DNA of 64,000 nucleotides, from contig JAGQKV010000002.1 in assembly GCA_020429915.1 (NCBI GenBank), forward strand, positions 192,061 through 256,060, written 5' to 3'. Below the pieces are notes generated by a model, which was given only the letters and a program-made list of their open reading frames with translations, did not search any database and was not told the DNA's origin. This DNA is from Candidatus Omnitrophota bacterium (GTDB taxonomy: Bacteria > Omnitrophota > Gorgyraeia > Zapsychrales > Zapsychraceae). The position numbers and the translations under genes were made by a program. This document shows, piece after piece, positions 10,436-43,015 of the stretch; the first letter of the stretch is position 1, and every line of letters starts with the position of its first letter.

Positions 10436-10452
10436 AACTATTTCCTTTTTGT

Positions 10453-19297: not shown

Positions 19298-19324
19298 AAC
19301 TGCGTATTCCTGATGTTGGGGGCG

Positions 19325-19505
19325 GTTAATTTAGCAATTTTAAAATGCGAATCTTAGAATGTTCGAATATTTAAAACAATATCGAATCTTCGAATCTGCG
19401 GGACAATATCGAATACTTCAATATTCGAATCTTTCAAACGCATCAGGTTTTAAACATTCGGTGATCGATAAATTTGAATTTGTCGCGTGTATTCGGGTAT
19501 TCGAA
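19325..19505. repeat. TTCGAA-module composite repeat, copy B (direct relative to copy A)
   Basis: See copy A. The pair brackets the TMEM175-like gene. Confidence 0.85.
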
Positions 19506-19533
19506 ATTTTATTCGCCGGTCCCCCGCTCATCA

Positions 19534-20445
19534 CTATATCTTCCCCCTGTTGTGCTTCTTGATCACCTTTTCAATTTTTTGCCAATGGGGACGTCCACCC
19601 ATAAGAACACTGACATAGTGAATGCCGGTACCGGCTATCGGACCGGGTTTGCGGGCCTTGCCGCCCATGATTTTCTCGGATTCGAAGATGACCCTGCCCG
19701 TCCCGGGGTCCACGGCATACACCTTGGCATATTGGCGCATCTCCGGAACGGACCCGTAATCAAGCCGGATCCGGCGGTTGGTTTGCTGAGCCCCGTAGCC
19801 GACAATATAGACGTAGGGAACCTCATACCGGACCGGTTCCGGGTGGGCCTTGTCCTGGGAGGCATACAGACTCCTGTATTGCTTTGAGGTCAACAATGTC
19901 CGCGGCCAGTCCCCCCGTGGAAAAAGTTCTTCAAAAGATAATGTCGGCTCCTGTTTCATTTTCTTGGACATGAGAATCACGTACGGTTGACCGGGTGTAA
20001 CGGCGCCGGGAGATTTGGGCAACGGCCCCTCCTCGAGGCGCCGGGAGATCTCCTCAATGCCGGTCAGGGTGGGTTTCAACGTCTCCTCCACCCGTTTTTC
20101 GACGCGTTTCTGATCGCGCAGTGTCTGGCAGAATCCGTACTTGTACGACACGAAGATCAGTCCGACGATAACGATGAAATTGAATGCCTGAAAGACTTTA
20201 TTCCGGTGTGGGGTGCCGCAGACCAGGATCACCAGGAAAAAACCGAGATATGCCGGCGCCACCAATTCGGCCAGATATAGAAAGACATGAAAGATATTCT
20301 GCCCCGGCCCGAACCAGAAGATCCCGGGCAGGAATTGATGCAGCGCCGGGAACAACAGCAGGACCGGGATGCCGTACAGACAAAAGGCCATCAGTTCCAG
20401 GTTGTCGGGCTGATCAGCCGGCGTGTTCGATTGTTCGGTTGTCAT
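19534..20445 (-). CDS. membrane protein (four N-terminal TM segments plus soluble C-terminal domain), last gene of the TPS-associated cluster
   Basis: 303 aa, no known motif. Only 27 bp separate it from the Hcp-like gene. Confidence 0.55.
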   Translation of the reverse strand: MTTEQSNTPADQPDNLELMAFCLYGIPVLLLFPALHQFLPGIFWFGPGQNIFHVFLYLAELVAPAYLGFFLVILVCGTPHRNKVFQAFNFIVIVGLIFVSYKYGFCQTLRDQKRVEKRVEETLKPTLTGIEEISRRLEEGPLPKSPGAVTPGQPYVILMSKKMKQEPTLSFEELFPRGDWPRTLLTSKQYRSLYASQDKAHPEPVRYEVPYVYIVGYGAQQTNRRIRLDYGSVPEMRQYAKVYAVDPGTGRVIFESEKIMGGKARKPGPIAGTGIHYVSVLMGGRPHWQKIEKVIKKHNRGKI

Positions 20446-20472
20446 AGGAAAATAATTTTCCGCCGGTCCGGT

Positions 20473-21039
20473 TTACGGCGTGACCGCACACAAGTTGTCT
20501 TCGTCGCAGGCGAAGGAAATCTCCCCGGACGCACCGCCGCGGAGTTCGGCAAAGGACCAGGTTATCTTGTCGAAATTGAGTGATAAAGTCTCGGTCGGAA
20601 TGCTGCCGTCATCCAGTCCGCTGCCGTTGACGGAATAGGACGTCACCTTGACCGAGTATAACCTGAGTTCGAGGTATGAGGGCTCATCACCAGTCCCGGT
20701 GTTCCAAACGATGACGACCTCCGGAAAAGATCTTCCCCCTGCGCAGGCCTGGACCAGCGGCACCGAGGTGCGGTCCACCTCTTTTTCGACCTCGATTTCC
20801 TCAAGGACCACGCCGGCCCGGGCCGCTGCGGGGTCGTCGGCGGCAAAGCCCCAGTTCAGCATGGTGAGATTGATCTCGCCGATTTCCGGGAATATCCCTG
20901 TCACCTTGGTTTTCCCTCCCTTGCCGACCGAACCTGAAATCTTCTTGGCGGCCTCGGCCCGGACCGGACCCAACATCAGAACGACAGACACAAATACGAA
21001 GACCAACAGCATGAGGCGACTTACCGGCATTCCTTTCAT
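20473..21039 (-). CDS. Hcp-family (T6SS tube protein-like) protein carrying an N-terminal Sec signal peptide
   Basis: 188 aa; signal peptide MKGMPVSRLMLLVFVFVSVVLMLGPVRAEA. The mature part carries Hcp-like blocks: SVPLVQACAGGRSFPEVVIVW compared with AVPLLYNALSSGEMLKSVELKW, and ETLSLNFDKITWSF compared with SLTVSLAYRKITWDH / ENVTLNFAQVQVDY. Confidence 0.55.
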   Translation of the reverse strand: MKGMPVSRLMLLVFVFVSVVLMLGPVRAEAAKKISGSVGKGGKTKVTGIFPEIGEINLTMLNWGFAADDPAAARAGVVLEEIEVEKEVDRTSVPLVQACAGGRSFPEVVIVWNTGTGDEPSYLELRLYSVKVTSYSVNGSGLDDGSIPTETLSLNFDKITWSFAELRGGASGEISFACDEDNLCAVTP

Positions 21040-21112
21040 GAGGCTTCTCCTTGTAATGAGGTGAACTGGGTATCGAACACAGAATCCGGTTACCTATCCG
21101 AAATCAATACGC

Positions 21113-21718
21113 TTATAAAGTGTCGGAATACTTTCTGAGCTGATACTCCACGTATCCCGAGAGGATTTCCTGATGCTTTTCCGGCTGGGAAAAACCGAAA
21201 TAAGAATGCTGAATGGCATGCGATATCTCATGGCCGAGGATATAAAAATTGACGGTCCCGGCATTGATAAAGACCGCATTGTCCGCGCTGAGGTAAAACC
21301 CTTCGGGCTGCTCCTGCAGGCCCATTTCCCTGCGCAGGAGTTCGAGCATCTCCTGATCCGCCAGGTAGACCTTGATGCTGGATTGGAAGTTCCAAAGATG
21401 CAAATCCAGCAGGTGCGAGACGACCAGGAACAATTTGTCGACTTCTTCCGCGAGCGACTCGGGGTTTTCAATCACCGGACGGATAATAAGTGTGTCCAGC
21501 GCGACGGGTAAGGTGAGTTGCTTGCGCAGCGCCTCGAGCTCCACCCCCTCCTGGAGATATATTTCAAAGAATTCCGATTTGACGGAAGGACTGTCGCTGA
21601 AGACGCCGGCCAGCGGCGTGGGGAGCGCATTCATCTCGGCCCGGCAGGTCGCCGCCGAAAGAACGAACACAATCACGGCGAATAGCAATCGTGTGATGAA
21701 ATCAGGTTTTAAACTCAT
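21113..21718 (-). CDS. secreted HExxH protein (putative MA-clan zinc metallopeptidase)
   Basis: 201 aa, signal peptide; ...FINAGTVNFYILGHEISHAIQHSYF. Confidence 0.55.
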   Translation of the reverse strand: MSLKPDFITRLLFAVIVFVLSAATCRAEMNALPTPLAGVFSDSPSVKSEFFEIYLQEGVELEALRKQLTLPVALDTLIIRPVIENPESLAEEVDKLFLVVSHLLDLHLWNFQSSIKVYLADQEMLELLRREMGLQEQPEGFYLSADNAVFINAGTVNFYILGHEISHAIQHSYFGFSQPEKHQEILSGYVEYQLRKYSDTL

Positions 21719-22253
21719 CCAGATTTTCTTTGATTTTCCGAGCCCGCTTTAGTTGCTCTCCGGTGAGTTCCCCGGCCTGTTTTTCAAACTGTGCCCATTC
21801 CTTTTGCAGGGTTTGTATGCGTTTGCGCAGGGATTCGCGCATTTCGTCGATGGAAGAGCCCAAATGCTGCAGCTGGTCGTCGGAACGGATCTTGACCCGC
21901 TGACTGAGATCGCCGTTCGCCATCTTCTCCACTTCCCGGTTGATGTTGAACAGCGGTCCGGAGATCTTGTGCGAAAACATCACCGTCAGGATGAGCACCG
22001 CCACAGCCGTCAGGGATGTCGTAACGATCAGGGTCTGGATGATGATGGGCGCGATAAAATCGGAGGTTGTCTTTACCGTGATGCGCAAATCCTCGAACGC
22101 GACGGTCGTGGTGCTCCTGTTCAGGTACAAAATCGTGGTCACCGCCACGATGCTCATCAGGATGATCATCACGCAGAACACCGTAATAAACCGTTTTTGA
22201 AAGGTCTTGTCGATATAGTACTGTTTTCTCAGGTTTTGCGCGCGTGAGTTCAT
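21702..22253 (-). CDS. small membrane protein with HAMP domain and C-terminal coiled coil
   Basis: Two TM segments, then HKISGPLFNINREVEKMANGDLSQRV (HAMP); no output domain. Confidence 0.6.
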   Translation of the reverse strand: MNSRAQNLRKQYYIDKTFQKRFITVFCVMIILMSIVAVTTILYLNRSTTTVAFEDLRITVKTTSDFIAPIIIQTLIVTTSLTAVAVLILTVMFSHKISGPLFNINREVEKMANGDLSQRVKIRSDDQLQHLGSSIDEMRESLRKRIQTLQKEWAQFEKQAGELTGEQLKRARKIKENLDEFKT

Positions 22254-22259
22254 AGGGCA

Positions 22260-22733
22260 CTAATCCTTCAAGACCTTGCCATTGATCTTGACGCGGGCAT
22301 TATCCCGCAACTCCTCAAGCCACCGGTCGATGTCGGGCCGGAGATCATTCGGCGCATGGCCGGCGGGGCGGCTTTGGAGTTCCTTCAGCTTCTTTTCCAT
22401 CATGACCCGCATCAGCGACTGCTCCCAAAATCGCTGGACGGTAGCCAGGAATTCCGGGTCCCGGTCGAGTCCGATGCGCTGCGCCTCCTGCAAGACCAGT
22501 TTCTGTCGGATCAAATTATCGATAAAGGCCTGCTCGACCTCCGCCGACGGCATATCCAGGCCCTGCTCCTTCAGCAGCCGCTGGTATTCCGCGTAGGGAA
22601 TCCGGTGATCATTGATCGTGATGACGGTTTCGGCCGGCGGGATATCCCGCGGTGAGCAGACCAGGTATACACCGGCCATGACCAGGAAGACGGCCGCGGC
22701 CACTGCGATGATGTTGCGGGGGTTTACATTCAT
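22260..22733 (-). CDS. membrane-anchored SurA N-terminal-domain-like chaperone protein
   Basis: N-terminal TM IIAVAAAVFLVMAGVYLV, then ...INDHRIPYAEYQRLLKEQ...FIDNLIRQKLVLQEAQRIGL, resembling the SurA/PpiD N-terminal chaperone module. Confidence 0.55.
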   Translation of the reverse strand: MNVNPRNIIAVAAAVFLVMAGVYLVCSPRDIPPAETVITINDHRIPYAEYQRLLKEQGLDMPSAEVEQAFIDNLIRQKLVLQEAQRIGLDRDPEFLATVQRFWEQSLMRVMMEKKLKELQSRPAGHAPNDLRPDIDRWLEELRDNARVKINGKVLKD

Positions 22734-22803
22734 TGCCTAATTATAGGAAATTGCCCGTAAAAGCGAAAGTAAAACCCCGAAAAAGTGGAGCCCGATCCGT
22801 TGG

Positions 22804-25800
22804 TTACTCGGATTCGCGCAGTTTCTCGATGAATTCATACATCTCGGGAGAAAGGTCGAATCCGTCAACGCCCTCTTCTTCCAGCTGATGATAAAAGTAC
22901 ACCGGAGAGGCCATCATTCCGGGGGTGATATTGGCGGCCATGCCCGGGTTATCGACCAAAGTCAGTCCCAGGATCCGAGTGGTGTCCGAGAATCCGACGC
23001 CCGGACGCAGGCTTCCGGAGACCGGCCGCACTCCCAGTGCTTCGAGGTTTTGGTTCAGCGTAAAGGCCACGTAAGCGGTAAATTCCAGGTCCTGGTTACC
23101 GACCGTCACATTGTTGTCCCCGGGAATAATGATACTGACGTCGCCGGGGCTGTAAAGAACGTCCGCGATCACGTTTCCATCCGGAACGGTCAGGGCGATC
23201 AAACCGCGGTCGATGATCTCAATTTGCTGCGACACCAGATCGCCGAAACGCTCCTCCGCGGTGATGCCGGTTTTGGCGAACATATTCAGAAACATCCGCG
23301 AGTCGACCACCAGCCGGTTGTCCTTCTCGCCGATGGCGCCCTGCTCCGCGACCAGGGAGACTTTTCTCCCGAAGATATTGATGTTCTTGTTGCTCAAGTC
23401 CGAATCCAGGATGGAACCGTTGACGGCCTTCAGTCCCACGTCCCCCTTTTCCGAGCGCACGGTGGCGCCGTCGATAACCATGTCGCCGTCCGTCTCGGTC
23501 AGATAGATGTCGCCGCTGGCGTGAGCGTTCAGGAGCCCGGGTTGGGACCACGACATATCAATGTCCAGCGGGTCGTCTTCTTCGCCGATAGCCCCGGCGT
23601 CCGAAAGCAGGGTGATATTGTTGGCGGTGATGTTGGCGTCTTCGGAGTCGCTGCCGTCACTCATCGAACCGCCGGCGCGCAGGTCGACGTCACCTTGAGT
23701 CGAAAAGACCGAGTTGAGCGCAACGTCGCCGTCGATTTCATGCAGCCAGATGTCCTTTGGTGCCGTTGCCGTCAGCCGGTTGGCGCCGGTTTCCAGCCGG
23801 TTGCCGGCCTCTCCGATTTGCCCCAGGATGGAGGTGAGCTGGATGTGATCGCCCTGAATATCCAGCGTGGCATTTTGACCGAAGTCCGCGATGTTCCCTA
23901 CCGCGGTCAGCTGAATATCTCCGGATGTTATCAGCCCGTCCAGGTTAAGTTCATCCTCCGTGGTATGAACGAGATAGAGATCGCCCGTGGAGACGCCCTT
24001 GAGGAACCCTGCCGGGTCCAGGGCGAATTCCACCGGATTCGTTTCGCTTCCGACCGCATTCGCATTGAGAAAAAGACTGGTGGCACGGATATTGTCGATC
24101 GGATTGCCGTTGGCGTCCGTGATCGCGCCGGCGGCCGAGAGATTGACGGTGTTCGGCGCAAACACGGTGTCCAGATTCAGATTGCCGGCGAGTTCCTTCA
24201 CAAAGATGTTATCGCCCGCGCGCGCGGTGAACCGGGCGTTGTCGAACAGGTCGGTGGTCACCGGCCGGCTCACCAGGCCGATACTGTCTTCGGCGGCTTC
24301 AATGATCAGGTCGTTGCCGGTGATGGTGGGCGCGGAATCCAGCGACACGTCATATACGCCCAGGGCGCCTTTGATGCGGACATTGTCACCGGCCACGATT
24401 TCATCGAGATTCAGGTCCGTTTCGCCGCCGAGGAAGACCTTGTCCCCGGCATGAATGATCACGGAATCCGCCTGCACGTCCACGTCGCTGCGGTTCTGAA
24501 TGATGATGCGGTCGTCCAGTACGGTGAAATCGTCTTTCTCCGCGGCGGTCATGATGATCTGCTGTTCGCGCGTAAGTTCTTCGCCGTCGTTGAGGAGAAT
24601 GACCTCTTCTCCGTTATCCTGTCCGAGCCCGCCGCTGATGTTCAGGACGATATTCTTGCCGATGATATTCGCTTCCTCGATAAGGGTCTCGGTATCCGAC
24701 ACTTCCTTAAACACGTCGCCCACGATGGAATAGCGCAGTTCATCCTCGGTCCACACGGCGCCGTCCTGGATGGTATCGATGTCGGCCTGTGTGATCGTGT
24801 ATTCATATTGCGGATCAAAGGCCGTGTTGCCGTATTCGGCGGCGAGGGCCTGGTAGTTGTCGGTCAGTTCGGACTCATAGGCATTGATCTGCTGTTCGTC
24901 CCAACCCTGGTTGTCCGCGAAGGCGGCGCGTTCTTCGGCGGTGAGCGTCACCACAAAGTCCGGATCGTGGGCTGTGGGGTCTGTCTGCCGGCTGCGGACG
25001 GACCAGTAATCCTGATACTCCTGTTCCTTGCGGTCTTTAAACGCCTGCACCTCGATATCCGCCGCCTCGATGGCGCCGTCTTCCAGGCGCAGGTCCATGT
25101 CCTCCCAGAAGGCGACCAATTCCGCTTCCGTGCGGGTATCCCGTTGATCGTTGAAGTTGTAATCCACCAGACTGCCGTTATCGACACCAATTTCCACGTC
25201 GCCCGTCAGTGACCGGACCTGGACCACCTGCAGGTCGTCCTGGATTTCCTCCAGGTAAATGCTTCCCGGGGCTATCGCGTACAATCCGGAGGCCTCGGTG
25301 GTCCCGGTGTCCAGGCGGATCGGCCGGCCGGACTCGCCGATGGACCCGTCGAACGCGTCGAGATTGACGAAATTCCCGGCGATCAGCGAAGACGGCCCGG
25401 CCGCGAGGATGCCTTTATCCGACATCACCGACACATTCCCGTTGCCGGTCGTGATCTGATCGAAGACCACGTCGCCGAAGATCTCCTCGATACGGATATC
25501 TCCGGCCGCGGATTGCGCGTTTAACACGAACTCTTCATCCACCCTGACGGTGGAGAGATTGCCGATGCCGGAGCCTGCCGAGAGGCTGACGTTGTTGCCC
25601 TTGATCTCGACATTGGTGTTCAGCTGATTGATGGCCCCCTGCAGGGAGGTCAGATTCGTGTCGCCGGTTTTATTGTTGAATTTGCCGTTGATCAACAGGC
25701 CGCCGTTGGACAGGACGTCGATGGCCGAGGAATCATAACCGGTAAACTCGATGCCGATCGGGTGGTCGGCCTTGATGCTGTGGACGTGAAAGTCCTTGGT

Positions 25801-28800: not shown

Positions 28801-31800
28801 GGAGTCGGAGATGATGCCGCCCTTTCCCGCCTTGGTATCCGCGAATACCGTATCCTTTCCGGAGGCCTCGATGCTGAGATCTCCGCCGTTAATGACGACC
28901 CCGGAATCGATATAACTATGAGTCGTTGTATTCGTGGTGGCGGTGGACCGGTTGGCGCCGCTGGCAATCAAACCACCGTGATAGGCCGAGGCGTATGAGC
29001 GTGTGCCGGTATCGTTGTTGGCCTTGACCTGAGTGGAGTTGCTCATCGTCAAGGTCGAGTTGCCACCGATATAGCTGTACACGCTGCCTTCATTTCGCGC
29101 CTCGGCCCGGGTGGCATCGCCACCTAATAAAAATCCTGAGGAGGCAAAGGCCTCTGCATTGGCGGAGGTCCCGTCTCCGTCACCCTGTTCCGCGAATACC
29201 AACAGGTCTTCGGCCTCGATCGCGACAATCTCTCCGATATAAGCCCGAATTTCGGGGCTTAGATCGACCTTGGAGTTCGAGAGGCCGACCGCGAATCCAC
29301 CGAGGCTGATGCCGAAAGTGTAGGCATCACCGTTTCCGTCGGCCGTTGCCCGGACGGAGATTCCCTCCGCCACTTTCAGCGTAGCACCGTTACCGATATT
29401 GGCTAAGACTTCGTCGTCCACTTCCACCAAGGCGTCTAGTCCCAGACCGGACAAAACGCCCCCCGAACCGCCATAGGCGTTACTCTCATAATCAAAGTCG
29501 CGCTTGGCCAGTAAGGAAACGTTGTTAACGACTTTTTCCGGAAGTATTCCGATGCGGGTGTTGGCTCCGATATGACTTCGGGTGACACCGAATTGTTTAA
29601 TCTTGGCTATAGATGCACCTGCGGTTCCTAAAGATAAACGGTATCCATGTGCGTCCGCATCCACCTTGCTGTTGAAATCGGCTTCAAGAGTCAGGTTGTT
29701 GGCTTCAACGATCTGCGTGTTATCTCCTAGCAAGGTCTCGGTGCTATTGTTGGCTTCAAACTCCGCTACCGCTGCCCCAATGGTTACACCCCCGAATTGA
29801 CCGGCAAAGCCCAGTATCTCTGAATCTTCGATGTCGGTTTCGGCCTTCAAGGTGATATCGTTGCCGGCGGTAAGTTTGGCGCCGGCCCCGGTAAAGGCCT
29901 TTGTGGCCCCGTCGGTATTTCCGACGGCCACACCCGCCCCGATGCTGAGACCTCCAATGTCCGCGACACCGGCGGTTAATTGTAAGGCGTTAATGTCATG
30001 GGCCTTGATCCGAATATCGCGGCCACTATTAATGACGGCGTCGGAACCGACATAGGCCGTGGTGTTGGTGTCCTCAGTTTGGTTTTGATCGAAGGAATCA
30101 TCGACGGAGATGCTTTCGTTTTGCGTCTCGGCGTTTATGTCCGCGAAGATATCATCGCGGCCGGCCTCGGTCTGAATACTGTCCGTCGTGGAACCCTGGG
30201 TGTTTGCGGTCTGCATGGTGGTGCCAGCTGCCTCGTTCCCTTCCCCGGTTAGATTGCTGGCAATCTTGGCCACCGAAACGGCCCCGCGCACACTGCCGAT
30301 ACCGGCCCCGGCATTGACACTCAGCGAATCGATGGACTTGTCGGACTCGGCCTCGACGTGAATATCCCTTTTGGCATAGACCTCCGATCCGGCCTTGATG
30401 GCCGCGGATGTCGAGGTACGGATGGTGGCCACATCGATCGAGGCCCCCAAACTCACCGCTCCCCCAGAACCGCCGCCGATATCGTCATCGATCTTCGAAC
30501 GGCTCGTTGCCGTCACGTGGACATCCTGCTCGGCGGCTGCCAAGGTTTGGTCTTCATTGATGATGGTGGTGCCTTCCGCTTCTTCAATATAGGCCTCGGT
30601 CGCGGACTTGATGATGTTGGAGGCGATCGCGCCGGCGGCGCCCACGTACTTACCCAGGGCGGCGCTCACCACGTAGGAGGCAATTTCCTGATCCGCATCT
30701 GCCGTGACCCATAGCTGATCGTGGGCGGTCACCCGTGAATCGGTAATGCGGGCAACGGTGTCATTTTCGATTTTAGAGACCATCACCGAACCGCCCACGC
30801 CTCCGCCTCCGCCGACCGCCACGGCACCAGCCAGTACACCGAAGCCGTCGCCGTCGGCGCTCTTGCCGATCTTGACGGTGTTGTCGGCGGTCACCGATGC
30901 ATTGCGTCCCGCCGTTACGGTGGAATCTTCGATATAACTCTCGGTGGTCGTGTCGGTGTTTAGAATCGGGACCGATCCGGCGATCGCCGCTATCGTGGAA
31001 CCACCGCCGCTGACCACCACTGAGCGAATTCCCTCTTCACTGACGGCATCCACCGTTACATCCTGTTTGGCCCGCACAAGCGAGTCCCCCGAAATGTAGG
31101 CCTTGGTGGAATTCTTAATCTTGGTGATATCCACGGTGCCTCCGAACCCGGCAAAGTTCAGACCGACGGCCAGAGCACCGGCCTTAACATCGACATCGGT
31201 GCTGTTAAAGGCCCGGATAACCGCCGACTGGCTGTCGGCGACATCGGTCGTTTGCACCGCGTTCAGTTCCGCATCGTCGACATAGGCCTCGGTAGTGTGT
31301 TCCACCTCGGAATATGAAACGGCGCCGGCAAAAGCCCCGGTGCGCCCGCCGCTGACATTCATACTCCAGATATCATGGTCTTCGGAAGACTCGGCGACAA
31401 TACCGATGCCGTTCAGGTCCACCGTGTTACCGGTGCCGTCGGCCTTGGAGATCATAAGCGCCTGTTGACCGTCCGCGTGCAGATCGGTCCCGCCGGCGGC
31501 ATAGGCCTTGGTGGTATTCTTGGAGATATTGACACCGACCGTTCCGCCGATCCCGGTCGCGCTGGCCTCTTTTCCGGCCAAGGCAATGGCCAGCCGGCCG
31601 CCGTAGAAATTGATGTCTTCCGCCGACTCGGCGTGGATGTAGATGCTGTCGTCCGCAGTTAACTTGGCATTGTTGGCATACGCCAAGGTCTCATTGGTCA
31701 GCTTGTTGCCGGCCGCGGATCCCGCCACGGACCAGCCGCCCGACACGGACCCGCCCACCGCCACGGTCTCGATCTCCGCGTCCGATTTGGCGTCCACGAT

Positions 31801-34800
31801 CACATTGCCGCCAGTGGAGTCCAGTTCGGCCGTCTCGGAATAGGCCCGGGTCTTGCTGTCGATTTCATTGTAGGCCGTGGAAATGCCGATCGCATTGGCC
31901 TGACTTAACCCGACATCACCCGCTCCGGACCCGATGCGTGAATCGTCTTCCGCACGAACGGCAATGTCCCCTTCCGAATCAACACTGCGGCCGCTGTCTG
32001 ATTCATCTTGTATATACGCATCTGTCTCATTGGTGATTTCATTGATCGTCACGGCCACGGCGGCGGCCATAAAATCGAGGCTCCCTCCGATCGCCGCGCT
32101 GACCCCGATGATGTCGGCCATGTTTTTGGCGAACAGGTCGATGCCCGCCTGTGTGCCGAGATCACTGTTCAGCAGGTACGCATCGGTTTCATTGCCGATC
32201 TGGTTATAAGAGAATGACGCCCCGACACCGGCCTTGGACCCGTAGGAGACCGAACCGGCCACGGCCACGATCGACGATACATCGGTCGCGGTGAGCCCGA
32301 CGGTCGTGGGCCGGAGGATCGAGGCGGCGGGATCGTCCTTCAGAGTGGACCCCTCGATATAACTATTGGTCTTGTTGTGGATTTCGTTGACGGCCACCTG
32401 GCCTGCGATAGCGATCCCGGAGCCCGCCGGATTGTGGGCGACGGAACCGCCGGCCGCCACGGCGTCGATATCCGCTTCGGACTTGGCCTCGAGATTGACG
32501 GCGGCACCATCCGCGGTCACCTGAGATGAACGGATGAACGCGTCATTTTGCAGTTCGATGGTATTGACCGTGGCCGCTCCCGAGAGTCCGGTGGACGTGG
32601 TCCCGGCCCCGGCTACGATGGTGGCGGACCCCGTCACCCCGTCGATGGCGCTGTTGTCCATGGCCGACAGGTCGATCTGTTCGGCGTTCACTTCGGACTC
32701 GTTGATGTAGGCGCGGCCTTTGTCCGAGATGGTGTTGTAGGCGACGGCACCTGAGAAGCCCACGCCGTACTTGCCCGCCCCGCCGGAGGCCGCTCCCCCG
32801 CTGCTGGTGGGCGACTCTCCGGCCGGACTGACCACGGCCCCGGCCAGCGACCAGGAACTGATGGACCCCTCGTTGGCCGCGGCGACCTTGAGTTTACCCG
32901 ATGTGTTCACTTCGCCGTCCGTATCATCGGTGTGATCGGCGTTGCCGGTGTCGTTTCCGATCACCGCCTGGGTATTGCGGTCGATATCACTGAGGGAAAT
33001 GGTGAATCCGACGCCGACCGCGCCGCCCTTGGTGATGCCGCCGCTCACATTGTACAGCTGCGCTTCGTCACGCGCCTCCACGATGACGTTTTCGGAATCA
33101 TCCCCCGCCTCATTCCACGCCCCGGCGCCCGTGGTGATCGCGGCGCCGTCATCGATGAGGGCCAGGACATCATTGTCGACGTCGAGGTAACTAAAGGTGC
33201 CGCTCACGCCGTATTGACCGGCCTTGCCCCCGGCCTCGGCGATGGCGATTGTCCGGGCCTCTGAATCGGCCCTCACCTTGAGCTTGTCCGCGTACACCTG
33301 TGCGCTGTTGTCGATGACGGCCTCCACCACCGATCGGTATTCGTTTTGCAGATACGCCCCGCCGACACCGGCCTTACCGCCACCGACTCCAATTCCTTTA
33401 AGTCCGAACACGCCCGACAGATTGACCGTCTCGATGTCCGCCTTGGCCTCAACCTTGACGTCCTGGGTCCCGGTCCGGAAGCTGTCGGTTTGATTGATGA
33501 GCTCCTGGTCCTGATTGATCCGCGCGCTTTTGCCGATGGTGGCGGTGCTCTCGGTGTCAAATCCGGCGAAGTTTCCGGAGCCGGAGACACCGATATCCTC
33601 AACGGCGGCATTGCTCTGCGCCCAGGTGGTGAAGAATCCGTTTTGGATTCCAATGTTTGTGTTGAGTTTGTCGGTGATATCGGACACGCCGCTGATCTGA
33701 TGCCACTCGATTTCATAGGGAATCGACACGTCGGACAGGACATGGATGAGTTGTCGAGCATCCACTTCGGCATTGTTATTGACGGCTGCCGCGGCATCGT
33801 TTTCATACAGCCCGACGGCCACCGATCCCGCAAAGGCTTTGCTTTTCTGGGCCGTGAGGCCGGAGTCCACCGTGGCGACGGTGCTGTTTTCGACAACATC
33901 CGTAATGAGCGATTCAACGTTGACATTCTGGTCCGCTTCCACATCTGCGTTGCCGTTGATCTCAGCGGTGGCTGTGTTGTGATGTTTTGAAATGGACAAA
34001 GCCGCGGACAGGGCAAAATTCGCCTTGGACTGTTTGTGCGTTCCCTGGGTTTCCCGTCCCAGGGCCTGATTCCAGCGGTCCTTGGCTTCGGTGCCGCGTC
34101 CCTTTCCTAAACTGATAATGCTTCCCCCGAACAAACCGCTTCCAACCGCGGACGTGGCGTTGGCATCGTTCTTTAGTGATGATATTTCCGATGTTACGAC
34201 AACGTTACCGCTTGAGATCAGCTCTCCGTCGACCTTGGCCGTAGTAGTGAAGTTCGATTCCGAATAGGTCACCGAGACCCCCAGGACGCCGTCTTCATAT
34301 GCACCCACGGTGGCCGCCGCGTCCAGTGATTTATCGGAATACGCCTCGACGTTGATATTATTTCCTTTAATTGTCGAACCCGATTGGATGTCTGTCGTAG
34401 CGGTGCTGTTGACCAGAACCACCGTGTTAGCCAGATCCGCCTTGGTCCCGGCCGACGAACCGCTGAGTTCGCCTAAATTGAACGTGAAAGACTTCATGCT
34501 CATTAGGACGTCCGTCTCAGATTTTACGGTGACATCACCACCGGCCGAAATGAGTGCACCGTCTTGAATTGTCACACCGGCAATGGCATCTGCTTCGCCG
34601 TAGGCCACTGAGGCGGCGATGCCCGCGGCATCCAAAGTAGAATTCGTCGTGGCGGATGAGCGGGCTGTGAAATTCTCCGAAGCCGCGATGTCCGCATGGC
34701 CGATCATAATGTCGGAGGTCGAGTCCTGATTGGTGATCGCCCCGAACAAGAACACGTCATTGATGAAATCGAGCGCGTCGATAAAAAAGTCGCTGGCCTG

Positions 34801-36264
34801 GTCCGGGCTGTCAAAACGCCCAAAGGTATTGGCTTCAGAAATCAGGGAGACATTCTTTCCCTTGATAGTCGCATTCCCAACCGTGATGCCGGAGTTCGCC
34901 ATGGATATGTTTGAGATAATTACCTGACCGGCCTGATCGGCGATGGCCTCCAGTGTGACGTCTCCCGCGTTATGCCCGTTATCGGCGTAGGCCGTGAGCC
35001 AAGCGCCGTCGTTCACATTGATTTGGTCGGCCTCCAATCTGAGATTTCCGGAATCTCCAACGGAGGTCCCCGTTTGATGATTGGAGCCGATGATATCGCG
35101 TGTTGAAAGCAGGACATTCTCATGAATCGTAATTCGTTGGTCGGCTTCCATTGTTAAATCGGCACCATCGGTTAAGTGGTCCATCATCACATCCAACGTA
35201 GGGGGGTCGATCAAAATACTTCCCTTACGCCCGTCATCGGATCTGGCGCTAAGGTGCCCTGACCACAGTACGTTATTCCCGGCACTGAGTTCAATAAATC
35301 CCCCATCTCCGGAGATCTCTCCCCCACTGACGTCAACCATGCCAAATTCATCCAGCCGTGCGTTTTGTCCGCCCCACAAGTAAATCTTGCCGCCCGAAGA
35401 ATTCTCTTCCGCCCCCTTGGCCGTCACCAGGGATCCGTCCGTGAGTAACAGGTCACGGCCCGACGCGATGCTGATGTCTCCGGCGTCCGAACCCGCTGCG
35501 CCGTCTGCGCGCACCTCACCGGATATTTCAATGTCGTTGAGCGTCACGATTTCGATGACCCCGCTGTCATCGACGCGGATATCGGCCCCGGCGCTGGCGC
35601 CGTCGATATTGATGATATCCCCCAAAGTGGGCACGGCAGCAGAATGACCGGCCCGGACCTGTCCCGCATGGTCCACCGATCCGGCCGCGATGCGGACCGC
35701 ATCCAGCGCGTTGATCTTGCCTTTGATGGAGATGATTCCGTTGTCGGACAAGGGGACGTCACCGGCCAGGACCGCGCTGATCGCGGCTGAGGATACGGTG
35801 CCCGAGGGGGAGACGATGCTCTCCAGGAATTCCTTTGTGGGCGTGATGGCTGTGAGCGATCCGACATTGATCACACCTTCCGCCCCGACCACCAGGCCGT
35901 GCGGGTTCAGGAAGAAGACATTTCCGCCGACGGCCCCGTTGGCAATCGAAGTGAGGACCCCGTCGATGTGTGAGGTCCGGTCGTGGACCAGGTTCAGCAG
36001 ATTGGTCGTTCCCGCCGGCAGATGCAGGTTGACGGTGTTGCCCTGGTGGACGTCAAACTTGGAGAAGGAGTTCAGCGCGTTGTTGCCCTGGCGCGTGGCG
36101 GTGAAGACGTCGGTGGTCTTCCCCTTGATGTCGAGCGTCGTCTGCGTCCGGCCGTCGGTCACGATCTGCTGGGCGGCCGCCAGCGAGGTTTGCGAAACGA
36201 TGAGACAGGCCGCGGTGAAGATGGACGTGAATTGATGAAGCATCGAATGTCTGCGCATGATCAA
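22804..36264 (-). CDS. giant TpsA exoprotein (filamentous-haemagglutinin/FhaB-like adhesin), 4486 aa
   Basis: Signal peptide, then a TPS (haemagglutination-activity) domain: NALNSFSKFDVHQGNTVNLHLP...NLVHDRTSHIDGVLTSIANG...GGNVFFLNPHGLVVGAEGVINVGSL. This is followed by thousands of residues of Gly/Ala/Ser/Thr-rich beta-helix repeats, an internal coiled coil, and an acidic C-terminal tail. Confidence 0.9.
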   Translation of the reverse strand: MIMRRHSMLHQFTSIFTAACLIVSQTSLAAAQQIVTDGRTQTTLDIKGKTTDVFTATRQGNNALNSFSKFDVHQGNTVNLHLPAGTTNLLNLVHDRTSHIDGVLTSIANGAVGGNVFFLNPHGLVVGAEGVINVGSLTAITPTKEFLESIVSPSGTVSSAAISAVLAGDVPLSDNGIISIKGKINALDAVRIAAGSVDHAGQVRAGHSAAVPTLGDIINIDGASAGADIRVDDSGVIEIVTLNDIEISGEVRADGAAGSDAGDISIASGRDLLLTDGSLVTAKGAEENSSGGKIYLWGGQNARLDEFGMVDVSGGEISGDGGFIELSAGNNVLWSGHLSARSDDGRKGSILIDPPTLDVMMDHLTDGADLTMEADQRITIHENVLLSTRDIIGSNHQTGTSVGDSGNLRLEADQINVNDGAWLTAYADNGHNAGDVTLEAIADQAGQVIISNISMANSGITVGNATIKGKNVSLISEANTFGRFDSPDQASDFFIDALDFINDVFLFGAITNQDSTSDIMIGHADIAASENFTARSSATTNSTLDAAGIAASVAYGEADAIAGVTIQDGALISAGGDVTVKSETDVLMSMKSFTFNLGELSGSSAGTKADLANTVVLVNSTATTDIQSGSTIKGNNINVEAYSDKSLDAAATVGAYEDGVLGVSVTYSESNFTTTAKVDGELISSGNVVVTSEISSLKNDANATSAVGSGLFGGSIISLGKGRGTEAKDRWNQALGRETQGTHKQSKANFALSAALSISKHHNTATAEINGNADVEADQNVNVESLITDVVENSTVATVDSGLTAQKSKAFAGSVAVGLYENDAAAAVNNNAEVDARQLIHVLSDVSIPYEIEWHQISGVSDITDKLNTNIGIQNGFFTTWAQSNAAVEDIGVSGSGNFAGFDTESTATIGKSARINQDQELINQTDSFRTGTQDVKVEAKADIETVNLSGVFGLKGIGVGGGKAGVGGAYLQNEYRSVVEAVIDNSAQVYADKLKVRADSEARTIAIAEAGGKAGQYGVSGTFSYLDVDNDVLALIDDGAAITTGAGAWNEAGDDSENVIVEARDEAQLYNVSGGITKGGAVGVGFTISLSDIDRNTQAVIGNDTGNADHTDDTDGEVNTSGKLKVAAANEGSISSWSLAGAVVSPAGESPTSSGGAASGGAGKYGVGFSGAVAYNTISDKGRAYINESEVNAEQIDLSAMDNSAIDGVTGSATIVAGAGTTSTGLSGAATVNTIELQNDAFIRSSQVTADGAAVNLEAKSEADIDAVAAGGSVAHNPAGSGIAIAGQVAVNEIHNKTNSYIEGSTLKDDPAASILRPTTVGLTATDVSSIVAVAGSVSYGSKAGVGASFSYNQIGNETDAYLLNSDLGTQAGIDLFAKNMADIIGVSAAIGGSLDFMAAAVAVTINEITNETDAYIQDESDSGRSVDSEGDIAVRAEDDSRIGSGAGDVGLSQANAIGISTAYNEIDSKTRAYSETAELDSTGGNVIVDAKSDAEIETVAVGGSVSGGWSVAGSAAGNKLTNETLAYANNAKLTADDSIYIHAESAEDINFYGGRLAIALAGKEASATGIGGTVGVNISKNTTKAYAAGGTDLHADGQQALMISKADGTGNTVDLNGIGIVAESSEDHDIWSMNVSGGRTGAFAGAVSYSEVEHTTEAYVDDAELNAVQTTDVADSQSAVIRAFNSTDVDVKAGALAVGLNFAGFGGTVDITKIKNSTKAYISGDSLVRAKQDVTVDAVSEEGIRSVVVSGGGSTIAAIAGSVPILNTDTTTESYIEDSTVTAGRNASVTADNTVKIGKSADGDGFGVLAGAVAVGGGGGVGGSVMVSKIENDTVARITDSRVTAHDQLWVTADADQEIASYVVSAALGKYVGAAGAIASNIIKSATEAYIEEAEGTTIINEDQTLAAAEQDVHVTATSRSKIDDDIGGGSGGAVSLGASIDVATIRTSTSAAIKAGSEVYAKRDIHVEAESDKSIDSLSVNAGAGIGSVRGAVSVAKIASNLTGEGNEAAGTTMQTANTQGSTTDSIQTEAGRDDIFADINAETQNESISVDDSFDQNQTEDTNTTAYVGSDAVINSGRDIRIKAHDINALQLTAGVADIGGLSIGAGVAVGNTDGATKAFTGAGAKLTAGNDITLKAETDIEDSEILGFAGQFGGVTIGAAVAEFEANNSTETLLGDNTQIVEANNLTLEADFNSKVDADAHGYRLSLGTAGASIAKIKQFGVTRSHIGANTRIGILPEKVVNNVSLLAKRDFDYESNAYGGSGGVLSGLGLDALVEVDDEVLANIGNGATLKVAEGISVRATADGNGDAYTFGISLGGFAVGLSNSKVDLSPEIRAYIGEIVAIEAEDLLVFAEQGDGDGTSANAEAFASSGFLLGGDATRAEARNEGSVYSYIGGNSTLTMSNSTQVKANNDTGTRSYASAYHGGLIASGANRSTATTNTTTHSYIDSGVVINGGDLSIEASGKDTVFADTKAGKGGIISDSAANATSSLTTNVNSYVGNGTGNVITADTFSLLSDYFGTFNARSDSINASVLGASGARATNTVNTSVTADIRPNNVIFAKELKAKANTDLDKNGVGQNVASGSGGVFDLPAAKSTSSITNRTQALIGQNTMIHVGVPEAENVVNDVRDTVESGDLVLSATSDVSATDRVKLSAGGGIAVAKSESELKNDIHENRVEVGTNANLISQGNIILATRGNVNLDADAKTKTYGVAGGASGEALARTNVYNDTIVRPGVVIRSDKDIHLYAGRDEYGRQNSISTRARVDINNKTAIPINGSPDAEARTVTTNDIFVDTTADVGALNDVYMYANNGSLNSDGYGTATDLWKEIVGFFSKLFGGSGSTKTTKRNNTTSGSAVVTVLGKVKAGFKNKQYLIIGANGDVLRQDEGVTFFETVENLAENILNEIERYEELKNEYSELDDTRLAYENEIVRLKQSLAELNQLSEGEAQYVSDVEFINVDDAYAQSGDMYVLADRLVGTGILEAPGDTEIRIVNHSPKYLRTNRLTIPDDDNGGTFLFNNRPVSDNQDISVINNGAAAAFSSVVTADNSAEPLIHVEATYNPDAPQNVNNPFPAPTIEVVGNITNLDGTVAIKNSAGSIHVKANINANTIDIESGRDFVLSFIDGFFHAGGDPKSHWEDVAEASEASRTDRAVNGVRSANGQSAIIAGNNVFLSARYLNINGLIQSGVPDQALVVPANLQLLDELGNLQTIDWARADFIQRRFIDLDPEASPFYRVASSGNIEAFYNVEMDRIELEGVRVEGGRMEIFGHILNTGGSAGQLKVIDGFGRINIVNNSAHDMVLNRLDTGKGIEGILRITDLGRRTADGLPLETIYTHIGDNVQVVDSMTRDGDGNPNNLANTISGRLAEYAPLEDQRYVWTTGQNFIVRKRRVYKGFGFWNTPILFGDTQYDTETTIPLDNVPLLEGDYLAFDQANASGYIYDFENRSLSDYKLTNSRQYSRVTWRAFVFGVLDYYRELTYEKGTKDFHVHSIKADHPIGIEFTGYDSSAIDVLSNGGLLINGKFNNKTGDTNLTSLQGAINQLNTNVEIKGNNVSLSAGSGIGNLSTVRVDEEFVLNAQSAAGDIRIEEIFGDVVFDQITTGNGNVSVMSDKGILAAGPSSLIAGNFVNLDAFDGSIGESGRPIRLDTGTTEASGLYAIAPGSIYLEEIQDDLQVVQVRSLTGDVEIGVDNGSLVDYNFNDQRDTRTEAELVAFWEDMDLRLEDGAIEAADIEVQAFKDRKEQEYQDYWSVRSRQTDPTAHDPDFVVTLTAEERAAFADNQGWDEQQINAYESELTDNYQALAAEYGNTAFDPQYEYTITQADIDTIQDGAVWTEDELRYSIVGDVFKEVSDTETLIEEANIIGKNIVLNISGGLGQDNGEEVILLNDGEELTREQQIIMTAAEKDDFTVLDDRIIIQNRSDVDVQADSVIIHAGDKVFLGGETDLNLDEIVAGDNVRIKGALGVYDVSLDSAPTITGNDLIIEAAEDSIGLVSRPVTTDLFDNARFTARAGDNIFVKELAGNLNLDTVFAPNTVNLSAAGAITDANGNPIDNIRATSLFLNANAVGSETNPVEFALDPAGFLKGVSTGDLYLVHTTEDELNLDGLITSGDIQLTAVGNIADFGQNATLDIQGDHIQLTSILGQIGEAGNRLETGANRLTATAPKDIWLHEIDGDVALNSVFSTQGDVDLRAGGSMSDGSDSEDANITANNITLLSDAGAIGEEDDPLDIDMSWSQPGLLNAHASGDIYLTETDGDMVIDGATVRSEKGDVGLKAVNGSILDSDLSNKNINIFGRKVSLVAEQGAIGEKDNRLVVDSRMFLNMFAKTGITAEERFGDLVSQQIEIIDRGLIALTVPDGNVIADVLYSPGDVSIIIPGDNNVTVGNQDLEFTAYVAFTLNQNLEALGVRPVSGSLRPGVGFSDTTRILGLTLVDNPGMAANITPGMMASPVYFYHQLEEEGVDGFDLSPEMYEFIEKLRESE

Positions 36265-37937
36265 AACCTCGCTTGAACGTAGTAGTGAAATCTGATGTCG
36301 TCTTCGTTAAAGGGATGGTCCAGGATCGGCACCCCGAGGGTCAGTTTTCCGGAGACGAATTTGGTGATATCAAAGGTGAGCCCCACGCCCACGCTGGCGA
36401 TGGCGTCTTGATTCTCATTCTCGACGTCCCCGATCAGGCGGAAGATATTCCCGTGGTCCAGGAAGGCAAAGAAGCGCGGCTGCCGGACGGCGGGGACATG
36501 CTGCAGGACCGCCAGCGGCGCGTCGATCTCCAGCTGCACGGTGTACCCGTTGTCGCCGATCAGCATCCCCTCGGGAAAACCGCGGACGGTCGCGATCCCG
36601 CCGGCCTGAAACTGTTCGGAAGACGGCAGCAGTTCGTCGCTGGCCAGCTGCAGCTTTCCTCTTAGCTGAACATAGAGGTCCTTCTCCTCGTTCAGGCGCC
36701 AGCGAAAATCCACGTCCCCGTTGTATTTGACGAAATACCGGTCGCCCTGGTTGAATTCGTCGAAGCCGTTGGTCAGCGTGTGGCGCGTGTAGGCATATCC
36801 CTTGTCGAGAAACAGCAGGGCGTCGACGCCCATATTCAAGGTCAGCACGGTCCCTTCATACGTAAACAGGTTATCAAAGGCATTGGTCGATTCCTTGTAG
36901 TCGAAGCGGGCCACGCCCTTGACGATGCGGCGGTCCTCCACGATCAGCGGATGGCTGCCGTAAACCCCGACATCGGTAAATTCCCCGACCACATCGATCG
37001 CCTGCAGCGGCCCGGATACGATCTCCGTATCGGAAAAGTCAAAACTGACCCCCAGGCGCGTGTCCATCGTGTTGACCGGCAGGTCGTAGGAGACAAAGAA
37101 GTTCGACATCCCCTCGGCAAAGACGCCCCCCACATTGAAGGCGTCGCGCACGCCGAACACGCTGCGCATCGTCGCGTAGGTGCCGTAACGGTACAGGCCG
37201 ATCTCGTCGCGCCCGGCATTGTCCGTGAAGACCAGGGCCGAAAAACGGTTTGGTTCGTCCACCACGATATTGACCAGGCTGGTGGCGAATTTGCTGCCCG
37301 GCTCCAGGGTCGAGCGCACGGAAATATCGTACAGCGAACTCATCCGGACCAGGTCCTTTTCCAGCTGCCCGAGGTCGATGATCTCTCCCTCCTTCTGTTC
37401 GACGCGTTTCATGACAAAAGTCCGGCGGGTGCTCTTGTTGCCTTCGACCCGCAGCCGGTCCACGGTCGGTTCGATCAGCTGAACATCCACACTGCGGTCC
37501 ACGATTCTTTGCGGCGGCAGGATGGCGCGGGCCAGGGCGTAACCCTGCTCCCGGTACAGCGTATTGAATTGGTCGAGCATCGCATAGAGTTCCTTGATGC
37601 TGACCTTGCGGTTGAGATAGGGACGGATCACGGACGAGATCTCTTCGTCCGACAGGATCTCGGACCGGCTGACGCTGATATTCTCGACAAAGATGACCTG
37701 CTGATCGCTCAGGCGGTTGATTTCGGGTTCGATCTCGGGAGCGGATATGACCTGGCGGTCCTGTGTTTCCTTTTTCCGGATGGTGGTGCGGATGTCCTGT
37801 TCTTGCCGTTCTTCCTTAAAGCGTTCAGCGGTGGGGGCCGGGCTGATGCCGAAGCCGGCCTGACTTTGCGCCCGGACGGCCGGGACACGGGCCAGGAGCG
37901 CTAGGATGACGAGGACAGGAAGGTAATGAATTCTCAT
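36261..37937 (-). CDS. TpsB transporter (ShlB/FhaC/HecB family, POTRA + 16-strand beta-barrel)
   Basis: 558 aa, signal peptide, C-terminal ...FHYYVQARF with an aromatic last residue. The stop overlaps the TpsA start by 4 bp (36261-36264), suggesting translational coupling. Confidence 0.85.
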   Translation of the reverse strand: MRIHYLPVLVILALLARVPAVRAQSQAGFGISPAPTAERFKEERQEQDIRTTIRKKETQDRQVISAPEIEPEINRLSDQQVIFVENISVSRSEILSDEEISSVIRPYLNRKVSIKELYAMLDQFNTLYREQGYALARAILPPQRIVDRSVDVQLIEPTVDRLRVEGNKSTRRTFVMKRVEQKEGEIIDLGQLEKDLVRMSSLYDISVRSTLEPGSKFATSLVNIVVDEPNRFSALVFTDNAGRDEIGLYRYGTYATMRSVFGVRDAFNVGGVFAEGMSNFFVSYDLPVNTMDTRLGVSFDFSDTEIVSGPLQAIDVVGEFTDVGVYGSHPLIVEDRRIVKGVARFDYKESTNAFDNLFTYEGTVLTLNMGVDALLFLDKGYAYTRHTLTNGFDEFNQGDRYFVKYNGDVDFRWRLNEEKDLYVQLRGKLQLASDELLPSSEQFQAGGIATVRGFPEGMLIGDNGYTVQLEIDAPLAVLQHVPAVRQPRFFAFLDHGNIFRLIGDVENENQDAIASVGVGLTFDITKFVSGKLTLGVPILDHPFNEDDIRFHYYVQARF

Positions 37938-38245
37938 AAGCTGTTATCAGTACGATGCTTTCGTCTTAGGTGCAAAACAGGAATAGTAGTTTAACACAAT
38001 CGAAACCAAAAGGGTGGAAAAAGACGGGCCCGCCGGGAGCAGGCCGAAGGCGGAATGTGAATGTATCTCATTGTGTCTCAGGAGTATGCGAAGGACCCCC
38101 TCCGCCCCCGGCGGCAGGACAACGACCGGTCAGGCTGGGTACGTGGAAATACCGACGTAATTTGAGGAGATTGCCTTAAAATCAGGCAGGTGTTGAGACG
38201 GGCCGGCGGATGGAGCAGGCAATCTGGTGCACGGGAAATTCAATT

Positions 38246-41555: not shown

Positions 41556-42069
41556 CCGCAGCCGTCCCGTTCTTGGGGGTCACGTAAGGATGAATCGGCA
41601 GCATGTAATCGGCCTTGCCGATGGGCAGGCCCTTCATGCGCAGGATATCGTAGGCGGTGACCAGATGGAAATAAAAATTGGCGATCAGAAAGTCGTTGAG
41701 ATACGCGCGCCCCGGCATATCGAGAATCACGGTGTTGAGGTCCAGGTGGACCTGTTCGGCGAGTTTGCCCTCATCCAGCGGCGCCGAAGCGAGCAGTTCC
41801 AGGGTGTGGGAGATGCACGCCTTAGCCTGCGCGGCGGTGGCGATGTCCGGGCTCATGTTATCCGGCCCCTCCCCCAGCATCCACCGCGCGAAGTTGCGCG
41901 GCTGATTGCAGGTGAACACGACCTGGGTCGCGAACGGGAACATGTCCTCCACGATGCGCGCCGTCATAAAATCCGAGTCGTTTTCAAAGTGTTCCTCCGC
42001 CTTGTTCAGCAGGTGCTGAAGCATACTCAGACGGGAGGAGAACAGGGATGGGATGGTTTCCAGGGTCAT
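41545..42069 (-). CDS. DUF1993-family protein
   Basis: 174 aa; family-level resemblance only. Confidence 0.5.
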   Translation of the reverse strand: MTLETIPSLFSSRLSMLQHLLNKAEEHFENDSDFMTARIVEDMFPFATQVVFTCNQPRNFARWMLGEGPDNMSPDIATAAQAKACISHTLELLASAPLDEGKLAEQVHLDLNTVILDMPGRAYLNDFLIANFYFHLVTAYDILRMKGLPIGKADYMLPIHPYVTPKNGTAADGR

Positions 42070-42084
42070 AGGAAGACTCCATTT

Positions 42085-42952: not shown

Positions 42953-43015
42953 TTGATGCTCCTTATTAGAGTGTTTGGGTGTCTACTGTTCCGGGGTAAA
43001 TCATTTGGATGCTGT

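Follow-up and report, generated by a model that had tools for sequence, protein, structure and literature searches.

Two-partner secretion (TPS) is regarded as the simplest secretion route, with one transporter and one cargo, and a locus of Candidatus Omnitrophota raises the question of whether such a pair can also be encoded together with its own envelope helpers. The locus lies in a 64,000-nucleotide stretch of contig JAGQKV010000002.1 (hereafter the window) and comprises a transporter gene (tpsB), a gene for a giant exoprotein (tpsA) and small genes downstream, five of which a first-pass annotation, made from the sequence alone, had taken for a dedicated accessory module encoded with the exoprotein. 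We find that the locus encodes type Vb secretion and belongs to a subfamily of such systems that is common in Omnitrophota; it is made up of tpsB, a tpsA with a conserved C-terminal tail and three envelope genes. The proposed module holds for the genes of a SurA-like protein, a HAMP protein and a secreted HExxH protein (hereafter the trio) and fails for those of an Hcp-like protein and a 303-residue protein (p303); it has three genes, not five.

Seven open reading frames (ORFs), namely tpsB, tpsA and the five small genes, were confirmed at the coordinates of the first-pass annotation, all on the minus strand, with spacings down the operon from tpsA of 70, 6, -17, 73 and 27 bp. The products assigned to the five small genes, a membrane-anchored SurA-N-like protein, a HAMP-only membrane protein, a secreted HExxH protein, an Hcp-family protein bearing a Sec signal peptide and a 303-residue polytopic membrane protein, were likewise borne out, as detailed below. 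Their common orientation, which had been offered as an argument for a module, carries no weight, because 49 of the 57 non-overlapping ORFs of at least 100 residues in the window share the minus strand.

The tpsB gene (36261..37937, minus strand) encodes an Omp85-type transporter of 558 residues with an N-terminal signal peptide, in which Pfam recognised ShlB (3e-24), POTRA_2 (2.5e-16), POTRA (5.5e-7) and Omp85 (5e-11), that is, the Omp85-type barrel with POTRA domains characteristic of type Vb secretion. The adjacent tpsA (22804..36264, minus strand) encodes a 4486-residue exoprotein of the LktA/filamentous-haemagglutinin type. Its probable start is the ATG at 36258, 2 nt past the tpsB stop codon TGA, and an alternative TTG start overlaps that stop by 4 nt; with either start, the translational coupling of the two genes proposed earlier is plausible. 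As expected of a type Vb cargo, TpsA has a TPS secretion domain behind a signal peptide (residues 32-294; 35383..36171, minus strand), matched by PF05860 at 7e-16 when the N-terminal piece was scanned separately. A Pfam scan of the whole-length protein returned zero matches, and scanning in 900-residue pieces recovered the TPS domain alone, leaving the remainder without a family. In NCBIfam, TpsA matched adhes_FxxPxG (LktA family, NF012204) at 1e-47 and adhes_NPXG (TIGR01901) at 2e-11, and the motifs NSFSKFDV and FFLNPHG can be read in it. The match to the LktA-family N-terminal model is a likeness to LktA of Fusobacterium necrophorum. The leukotoxin operon lktBAC of that species has a small downstream gene of unknown function; the likeness to this operon is a lead only.

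The evidence for a module of three genes comes from a comparison covering 80 related loci, cited below by number. Loci L003-L005 came from an exact-protein look-up, at least six (L006-L011) from a genome scan with a degenerate LGHExxH pattern, and 70 (L012-L081) from metagenomes, which were scanned for the invariant C-terminal motif GYVEYQLR by means of a C-terminal-only alignment; the six-frame ORFs of all loci were searched with profiles seeded from the window proteins. The full trio was found in 49 distinct loci in addition to the window (SurA-like homologues in 51 loci, HAMP homologues in 60), the other two genes were present wherever 700 bp or more upstream of an HExxH gene was available, and the order SurA-like, HAMP, HExxH was fixed in every locus with sufficient upstream sequence. 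Furthermore, among the non-redundant trio loci that have 1 kb or more of upstream sequence, 35 when the window is counted, 29 contain a TPS-like gene, and in 26 of these 29 it was a co-directional upstream TpsA-like ORF, mostly ending 40-250 bp away. TpsB was found further upstream wherever the flank reaches (L005, L009, L011, L046 and L067), and a homologous tpsB also stands beside the trio in L064 and L068. NPXG domains were recognised by NCBIfam in all three complete TpsA proteins scanned (L005, L011 and L067). Since Pfam recognised only MBG_2 (L030) and YDG (L055) in the large upstream ORFs of the related loci, the homology of those ORFs to TpsA bodies was shown by BLASTP. The gene following the HExxH gene differs between loci, so the conserved unit stops there. 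Had homologues of the small genes never been found beside TPS genes, the first-pass annotation would have given up its module; for the SurA-like, HAMP and HExxH genes, co-localisation with TpsA/TpsB was seen in dozens of loci. Chance adjacency is ruled out, the linkage being kept through rearrangements. These data establish a conserved accessory module of three genes encoded with a TPS cargo and kept across many lineages.

In two loci the trio is tandemly duplicated after a single TpsA gene (L012, 2435-6016; L014, 5890-8950), the second HExxH copy of L012 being a lipoprotein with an N-terminal extension. Elsewhere, clusters of GspE-, GspF- and pseudopilin-like genes directly adjoin the trio (L008, 536-6848; L036, 4093-10348; L061, 4874-11081). 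The reported flanks of Omnitrophota giant genes are type II secretion system (T2SS)/pilus genes, glycoside hydrolase genes and mobile elements, and these pilus/T2SS-like neighbours agree with them.

A feature tying the trio to TpsA had been overlooked in the first reading of the locus. Alignment of the C-termini of the trio-adjacent large ORFs uncovered a common tail of ~60 residues with the consensus …P(V/I)(Y/F)FYHPLxxxDxSAFDxFxL(D/E)EGAY(D/E)FI(D/E)GxINIxGHEGLLPILExIKKKK, preceded by ORF bodies of varying length and with varying domains, among them MBG_2 and YDG repeats. The tail region itself matched no Pfam family in scans of the TpsA pieces and of the large upstream ORFs of related loci. 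In the window, TpsA has a short divergent form of the tail (22807..22908, minus strand) ending SPVYFYHQLEEEGVDGFDLSPEMYEFIEKLRESE; a hidden Markov model of the tail matched residues ~4445-4481 (4459-4495 of the stop-to-stop frame) with a whole-sequence E-value of 6.5e-10, and it also matched ORF C-termini in 39 other loci. In the trio loci where 400 bp or more is available upstream, 41 in all, this model places the tail at the end of an ORF near the trio in 37; the four others are L007 and L063 (flank too short to judge), L036 and L044. A TPS domain was found in every complete tail-bearing protein except one, and the minimal case is a 533-residue protein of L009 that has a TPS domain and the tail.

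The arrangement of tail and trio varies between loci. The tail ORF is co-directional and upstream of the trio in most of them, downstream of it in a convergent layout in L062, L064, L068 and L069, 0.8-1.7 kb away behind inserts in six loci (L038, L043, L053, L055, L058 and L061), and, in L008, at a distance of 7.6 kb with pilus/T2SS-like genes in between. One and the same pair of AbiEii/AbiEi-like toxin-antitoxin genes lies between exoprotein gene and trio in L053, L055, L058 and L061, which come from unrelated samples; an AbiEii/AbiEi-like pair was also seen upstream of the trio in L007, and an opposite-strand transposase-like gene occupies the space between exoprotein gene and trio in L038 and L043. 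The contig of L009, which is shared with L031, carries (1353-8581) two tail-bearing TPS-domain proteins of 533 and 1560 residues with a gene for an extracytoplasmic function (ECF)-type sigma factor between them, followed by a single trio. In L044, a 5'-cut giant ORF of more than 2741 residues (3-8228), with neither a Pfam match nor the tail, lies directly upstream of the trio in the usual TpsA position. A signal-peptide protein of L015 (6291-8189) is 77% identical over its C-terminal 475 residues, tail included, to the TpsA of L014.

The trio proteins are labelled hypothetical in databases. The first gene (22260..22733, minus strand) encodes a SurA-like chaperone domain of 157 residues with a single N-terminal hydrophobic helix, which matches SurA_N_3 (31 bits, cut-off 27.2) and SurA_N_2 (29.6 bits, cut-off 28.5), both barely over the gathering scores. 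It thus has the N-terminal chaperone domain of the SurA family; a rotamase match, by which the parvulin peptidyl-prolyl isomerase (PPIase) domain of that family would be recognised, was found neither in Pfam nor in NCBIfam. A profile of 18 family members matched the Protein Data Bank chains HP0175 of Helicobacter pylori (9e-9), Cbf2/PEB4 of Campylobacter jejuni (3e-5) and LIC12922 of Leptospira. The match falls into two stretches, the N- and C-terminal helical segments, and skips residues ~120-223 of HP0175. Because this alignment passes over the parvulin domain, we read the protein as a PEB4/HP0175-type chaperone module without the PPIase: it resembles SurA, PEB4 (Cbf2), HP0175 and PrsA in its two helical chaperone segments and differs from them in lacking the parvulin domain between the two. 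Most homologues have a lipobox, and this lipoprotein anchoring resembles that of PrsA. The window copy, which is shorter by a further ~45 residues, reads VYLVC without a canonical lipobox, and the L003 copy has no Cys; in this lineage the protein is therefore probably anchored by its helix.

The second gene (21702..22253, minus strand) encodes a 183-residue protein with two transmembrane (TM) helices (residues 23-41 and 75-93) and, after the second, a HAMP domain (PF00672, 2.5e-10, residues 93-143), the arrangement of HAMP transducers. Past this domain only ~40 residues of coiled coil follow. The output domain that a transducer would have (kinase, methyl-accepting chemotaxis protein signalling or GGDEF/EAL) is absent from this protein and from all family members scanned, and the NCBIfam matches of the window protein are confined to the HAMP region, far under the cut-offs. 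Family-wide motifs are a cytoplasmic N-terminal RRNYFIDKxFQxxFILKF, a short periplasmic loop with STTV and a C-terminal FKT.

The third gene (21113..21718, minus strand) encodes a minimal, secreted zinc metallopeptidase-like protein of 201 residues, with an AxA-type signal peptide and ~150 mature residues. No Pfam or NCBIfam family covers it; individual family members gave SprT-like and M48 matches around the motif, all sub-threshold. Invariant in the family are LGHExxH, E(I/V)LSGYVEYQLRK and downstream Glu residues. An AlphaFold2 model of the protein reached a mean predicted local distance difference test (pLDDT) score of 89.5, and a Foldseek search with it ranked collagenase peptidase domains first (probability 0.99). 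With HExxH and a downstream Glu ligand placed on a zincin fold, as in gluzincins, the protein is predicted to be a minimal gluzincin-type peptidase of an unnamed family, the modelled fold being confident. It differs from known gluzincins (M30 lugdulysin, M1 and M9 collagenase) in its ~150 mature residues, its lack of accessory domains and its identity of 10-14% to solved structures. A word-indexed database contained 46 homologues, of which all named ones are labelled Omnitrophota, and an exhaustive profile search returned 757 representative clusters, all of them stand-alone proteins of ~110-300 residues.

What might the trio do for TpsA? Our preferred reading, to which we assign a probability of roughly 0.55, is that it is a module facing the periplasm, where it would chaperone the C-terminal tail and process or release it by proteolysis. 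TpsA would cross the inner membrane by Sec and then thread N-terminus first through TpsB, so the tail would be the last part out and would stay exposed on the periplasmic side, where helpers would naturally act on it. There, the anchored SurA-like chaperone would hold the tail, its trimming or removal would fall to the HExxH peptidase, and the HAMP protein would be a scaffold or gate for these two proteins at the inner membrane. The predicted localisation of each protein suits such a role: the chaperone has a lipobox or anchor helix, the peptidase a signal peptide and the HAMP protein a conserved periplasmic loop. Gene identities, folds, conserved order and linkage are observations; that the proteins touch the tail, that it is cut and that the HAMP protein takes any part are inferences.

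The closest known counterpart is the FhaB/FhaC system of Bordetella, which likewise pairs a TpsB transporter with a giant TpsA bearing an N-terminal TPS domain. In FhaB, the C-terminal prodomain undergoes a regulated degradation started by DegP (PMC8263021; PMC4542190), and the proposal that the C-terminal part of the window TpsA stays periplasmic and is removed by proteases parallels FhaB with its DegP, CtpA and SphB1 (PMC8263021; PMC4542190). The PPIase-chaperone Par27 binds the TpsA protein filamentous haemagglutinin (FHA; PMC8151025), and the SurA/PEB4-type periplasmic chaperone of the trio resembles it, although binding to the exoprotein is here only proposed. There are also clear differences. 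The Bordetella helpers are unlinked general envelope proteins, whereas the genes for those described here accompany the exoprotein gene; the chaperone lacks a parvulin domain, the protease, small and gluzincin-like, is not of the serine type, and the HAMP protein has no counterpart. The tail, at ~60 residues, is set apart by size from the FhaB prodomain of ~1200 residues.

Several points weigh against our reading. The proposed connection between trio and tail is drawn from gene linkage, and inheritance of one operon could by itself explain why they occur together. Two loci, L036 and L044, are real exceptions without a tail-bearing neighbour, and the tail-bearing ORF of 632 residues in L015 has no recognisable TPS domain. 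The tail of the window itself is short and divergent, its E-value of 6.5e-10 comparing with 1e-18 to 1e-33 for other, full-length tails. Peptidase activity is deduced from motif and fold alone, and the HAMP protein has a periplasmic loop of only ~25-30 residues and no known output. Finally, a perfect TATAAT stands 7 nt before the ATG of the SurA-like gene (22740-22760, minus strand), with no -35 element at the usual distance, and might act as an internal promoter whose transcript would be almost leaderless.

An alternative that gives the same proteins a more specific task is a release switch of the LapD/LapG kind. In this scheme, the tail would plug or anchor TpsA at the periplasmic side of TpsB and keep the filament on the cell, a cut by the HExxH peptidase would release it, the HAMP protein would sequester or free the peptidase on a cytoplasmic signal, that is, inside-out, and the chaperone would keep the tail competent. 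The cast is indeed the same: as in LapA/LapG/LapD and in DvhA/DvhG/DvhD of Desulfovibrio, genes for a giant adhesin at the cell surface, a protease in the periplasm and a HAMP protein in the inner membrane occur together (PMC10990149; PMC13090378). In the Lap and Dvh systems, the protease is directed at the end of the adhesin that is last to leave the periplasm (PMC10990149; PMC13090378), and the tail holds that position in TpsA, like the retention module of LapA in type I secretion (PMC10990149; PMC13090378). Moreover, the conserved cytoplasmic N- and C-terminal motifs of the HAMP family could bind a partner. The differences are substantial, however. The window system is of type Vb and Lap of type I; LapG is a cysteine protease and the HExxH protein a metalloprotease; LapD has a large periplasmic protease-binding domain, far bigger than the ~25-30-residue loop found here, together with GGDEF/EAL domains. 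No LapG-type cysteine protease or LapD-type GGDEF/EAL protein was matched by Pfam or NCBIfam, so the likeness is one of analogy only, and no result supports a cell-bound state of TpsA. Nor was a PilZ domain found, and Rfam scans of the region upstream of tpsB and of the whole window were negative for riboswitches, including those for cyclic di-GMP, and for all other RNA families. Because neither a sequence relationship to Lap proteins nor a cyclic di-GMP domain or riboswitch was found, we regard this switch, in the fate of the filament as in the inside-out control, as possible yet doubtful.

The trio might instead serve general envelope housekeeping in Omnitrophota, or be an immunity set against the exoprotein, and stand near giant genes by inherited synteny. 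The breadth of the family, with its 757 representative clusters, the two loci without a tail-bearing neighbour and the position of the trio beside pilus/T2SS-like genes in L008, L036 and L061 fit this explanation. It is nevertheless an unlikely one, since the linkage to TpsA is kept through inversions and insertions and the trio is found in tandem beside TpsA in L012 and L014. The immunity version is ruled out: immunity proteins normally vary with the variable toxin tip, and here trio and tail are both conserved rather than polymorphic. We give slightly less credence still to a signalling or regulatory device whose task would be to detect stress in the envelope or in secretion and to adjust how the tps operon is expressed, not to act on the TpsA protein. 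HAMP domains are typical of transmembrane signal transducers, and the ECF-type sigma factor gene of L009 lies inside a related locus; yet that gene occurs in one locus only, none of the ~60 HAMP homologues has a kinase, cyclase, anti-sigma or DNA-binding domain, and the chaperone domain and the peptidase would be left unexplained.

Least probable of all is the original notion that the five genes form one module in which a Sec-exported Hcp-like ring and p303 share in TpsA maturation; the tight spacing (73 and 27 bp) on one strand, the envelope-facing prediction for both proteins and the recurrence of the p303/Hcp pair in L002 speak for it, and it is largely refuted by L003, which lacks both genes, by their absence from all other trio loci and altered order in L002, and by signal-peptide Hcp homologues that occur with no TPS gene near (L001), while co-orientation is uninformative and a weak terminator-like hairpin interrupts the HExxH-Hcp gap.

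Locus L003 is the closest relative of the window, with identities of 89% for the tpsA C-terminus, 83% for the SurA-like protein, 85% for the HAMP protein and 77% for the HExxH protein. A TMEM175 homologue begins 75 bp past the HExxH gene in L003, whereas in the window the TMEM175 gene follows p303. Since the TMEM175 gene of L003 directly follows the HExxH gene, the Hcp-like gene, the p303 gene and the repeats behind them represent an insertion of ~1.8 kb. In the window, it contains the gene of the Hcp-fold protein (20473..21039, minus strand; 188 residues, including a Sec signal peptide and a pair of Cys residues at the C-terminus; PF05638, T6SS_HCP, 1e-17), the gene of p303 (19534..20445, minus strand; three TM helices predicted within the N-terminal ~100 residues, then a soluble part of ~200 residues) and, at its 3' end, a repeat-rich intergenic stretch of 236 bp with TTCGAAT-type units (19298..19533, minus strand). 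Hcp and p303 are thus a later, recent insertion downstream of the tps/trio unit.

The Hcp-like protein matched only the window, L002 and an Hcp-derived locus, L001. L002, a 2.2-kb contig, contains a partial p303 copy (59% identical), a 120-residue ORF and a signal-peptide Hcp (69% identical; 1537-2106) that keeps the C-terminal Cys pair, a feature absent from cytoplasmic forms. A TTCGAAT-type repeat array ends the cassette in L002 too (2105-2200), and none is present in the corresponding gap of L003; such arrays may be regulatory or may mark movement of the cassette. The protein has the Hcp fold of type VI secretion systems (T6SS), with identities to Hcp proteins of up to 77% over the conserved core, and its closest signal-less homologue, P0014 (65% identical over the conserved core), belongs to a complete T6SS cluster (L082). 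No T6SS genes were found among the window genes scanned, and the Sec signal peptide is at odds with a cytoplasmic T6SS component. Because an exported Hcp cannot build a T6SS tube, the protein looks like a re-used fold, apparently a Sec-exported offshoot of the genuine T6SS tube family that is not tied to TpsA. Other signal-peptide Hcp homologues stand alone (L001, 10001-10519), and a signal-peptide Hcp copy in Parvularculaceae is an orphan amid unrelated genes. A literature search on signal-peptide Hcp proteins returned nothing specific. For p303, no Pfam family was found, a search of 5.8 billion clusters returned only the protein itself, and a single-sequence AlphaFold2 model had a pLDDT of 45 and was unusable.

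According to a recent review of type V secretion, it is mostly unknown what periplasmic factors do to keep TpsA proteins secretion-competent, and the review names no operon-encoded helper for TpsA (PMC8151025). Omnitrophota are uncultured, ultra-small bacteria that stand out for their giant genes and are presumed to be dependants or predators of other cells (PMC10066038; 10.1101/2023.11.21.568195). The publications on these giant genes that we searched mention no SurA, HAMP, two-partner, ShlB, haemagglutinin or Hcp, and our literature search found nothing joining Omnitrophota with two-partner secretion and no description of the trio module. The combination of type Vb secretion with a tail conserved on the cargo and an accessory module of three genes thus appears to be new. 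A trio that travels with the cargo gene across the phylum, together with the cargo tail, offers a testable answer on the periplasmic helpers of TpsA for one large subfamily, and trio and tail provide a genetic handle on the maturation or release of very long filaments. Control of such filaments in Omnitrophota is of ecological interest because surface filaments are likely contact organs. If the Lap-like switch were true, it would be the first operon-encoded set of chaperone, protease and transducer for type Vb secretion and would let ultra-small, probably host-dependent bacteria control their attachment to host cells. The correction to the original claim, which leaves the Hcp-like protein outside the system, matters as well.

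As for transcription, the first-pass annotation had supposed that it does not terminate directly after tpsA, and a terminator scan agreed, with no terminator-like site in the 70-bp gap between tpsA and the SurA-like gene. A terminator-like hairpin with an 8-bp stem including 6 G-C pairs, followed by a T run, stands between the gene upstream and tpsB (38027..38045, minus strand) and is likely to be the 5' boundary of the transcription unit. The promoter and terminator scans around the module were given little weight because their results were not above shuffled expectation.

The gene directly upstream of tpsB (38246-39868, minus strand) encodes a 540-residue signal-peptide protein with faint beta-propeller-like matches only. 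Elsewhere in the window, G+C falls to 0.40-0.45 at positions 4000-12000 and 42000-44000, against ~0.57 in the rest, which suggests acquired DNA. A 196-residue protein (13905-14495, minus strand) ends in a PEP-CTERM sorting signal (1e-8), and an exosortase system is therefore implied in this genome.

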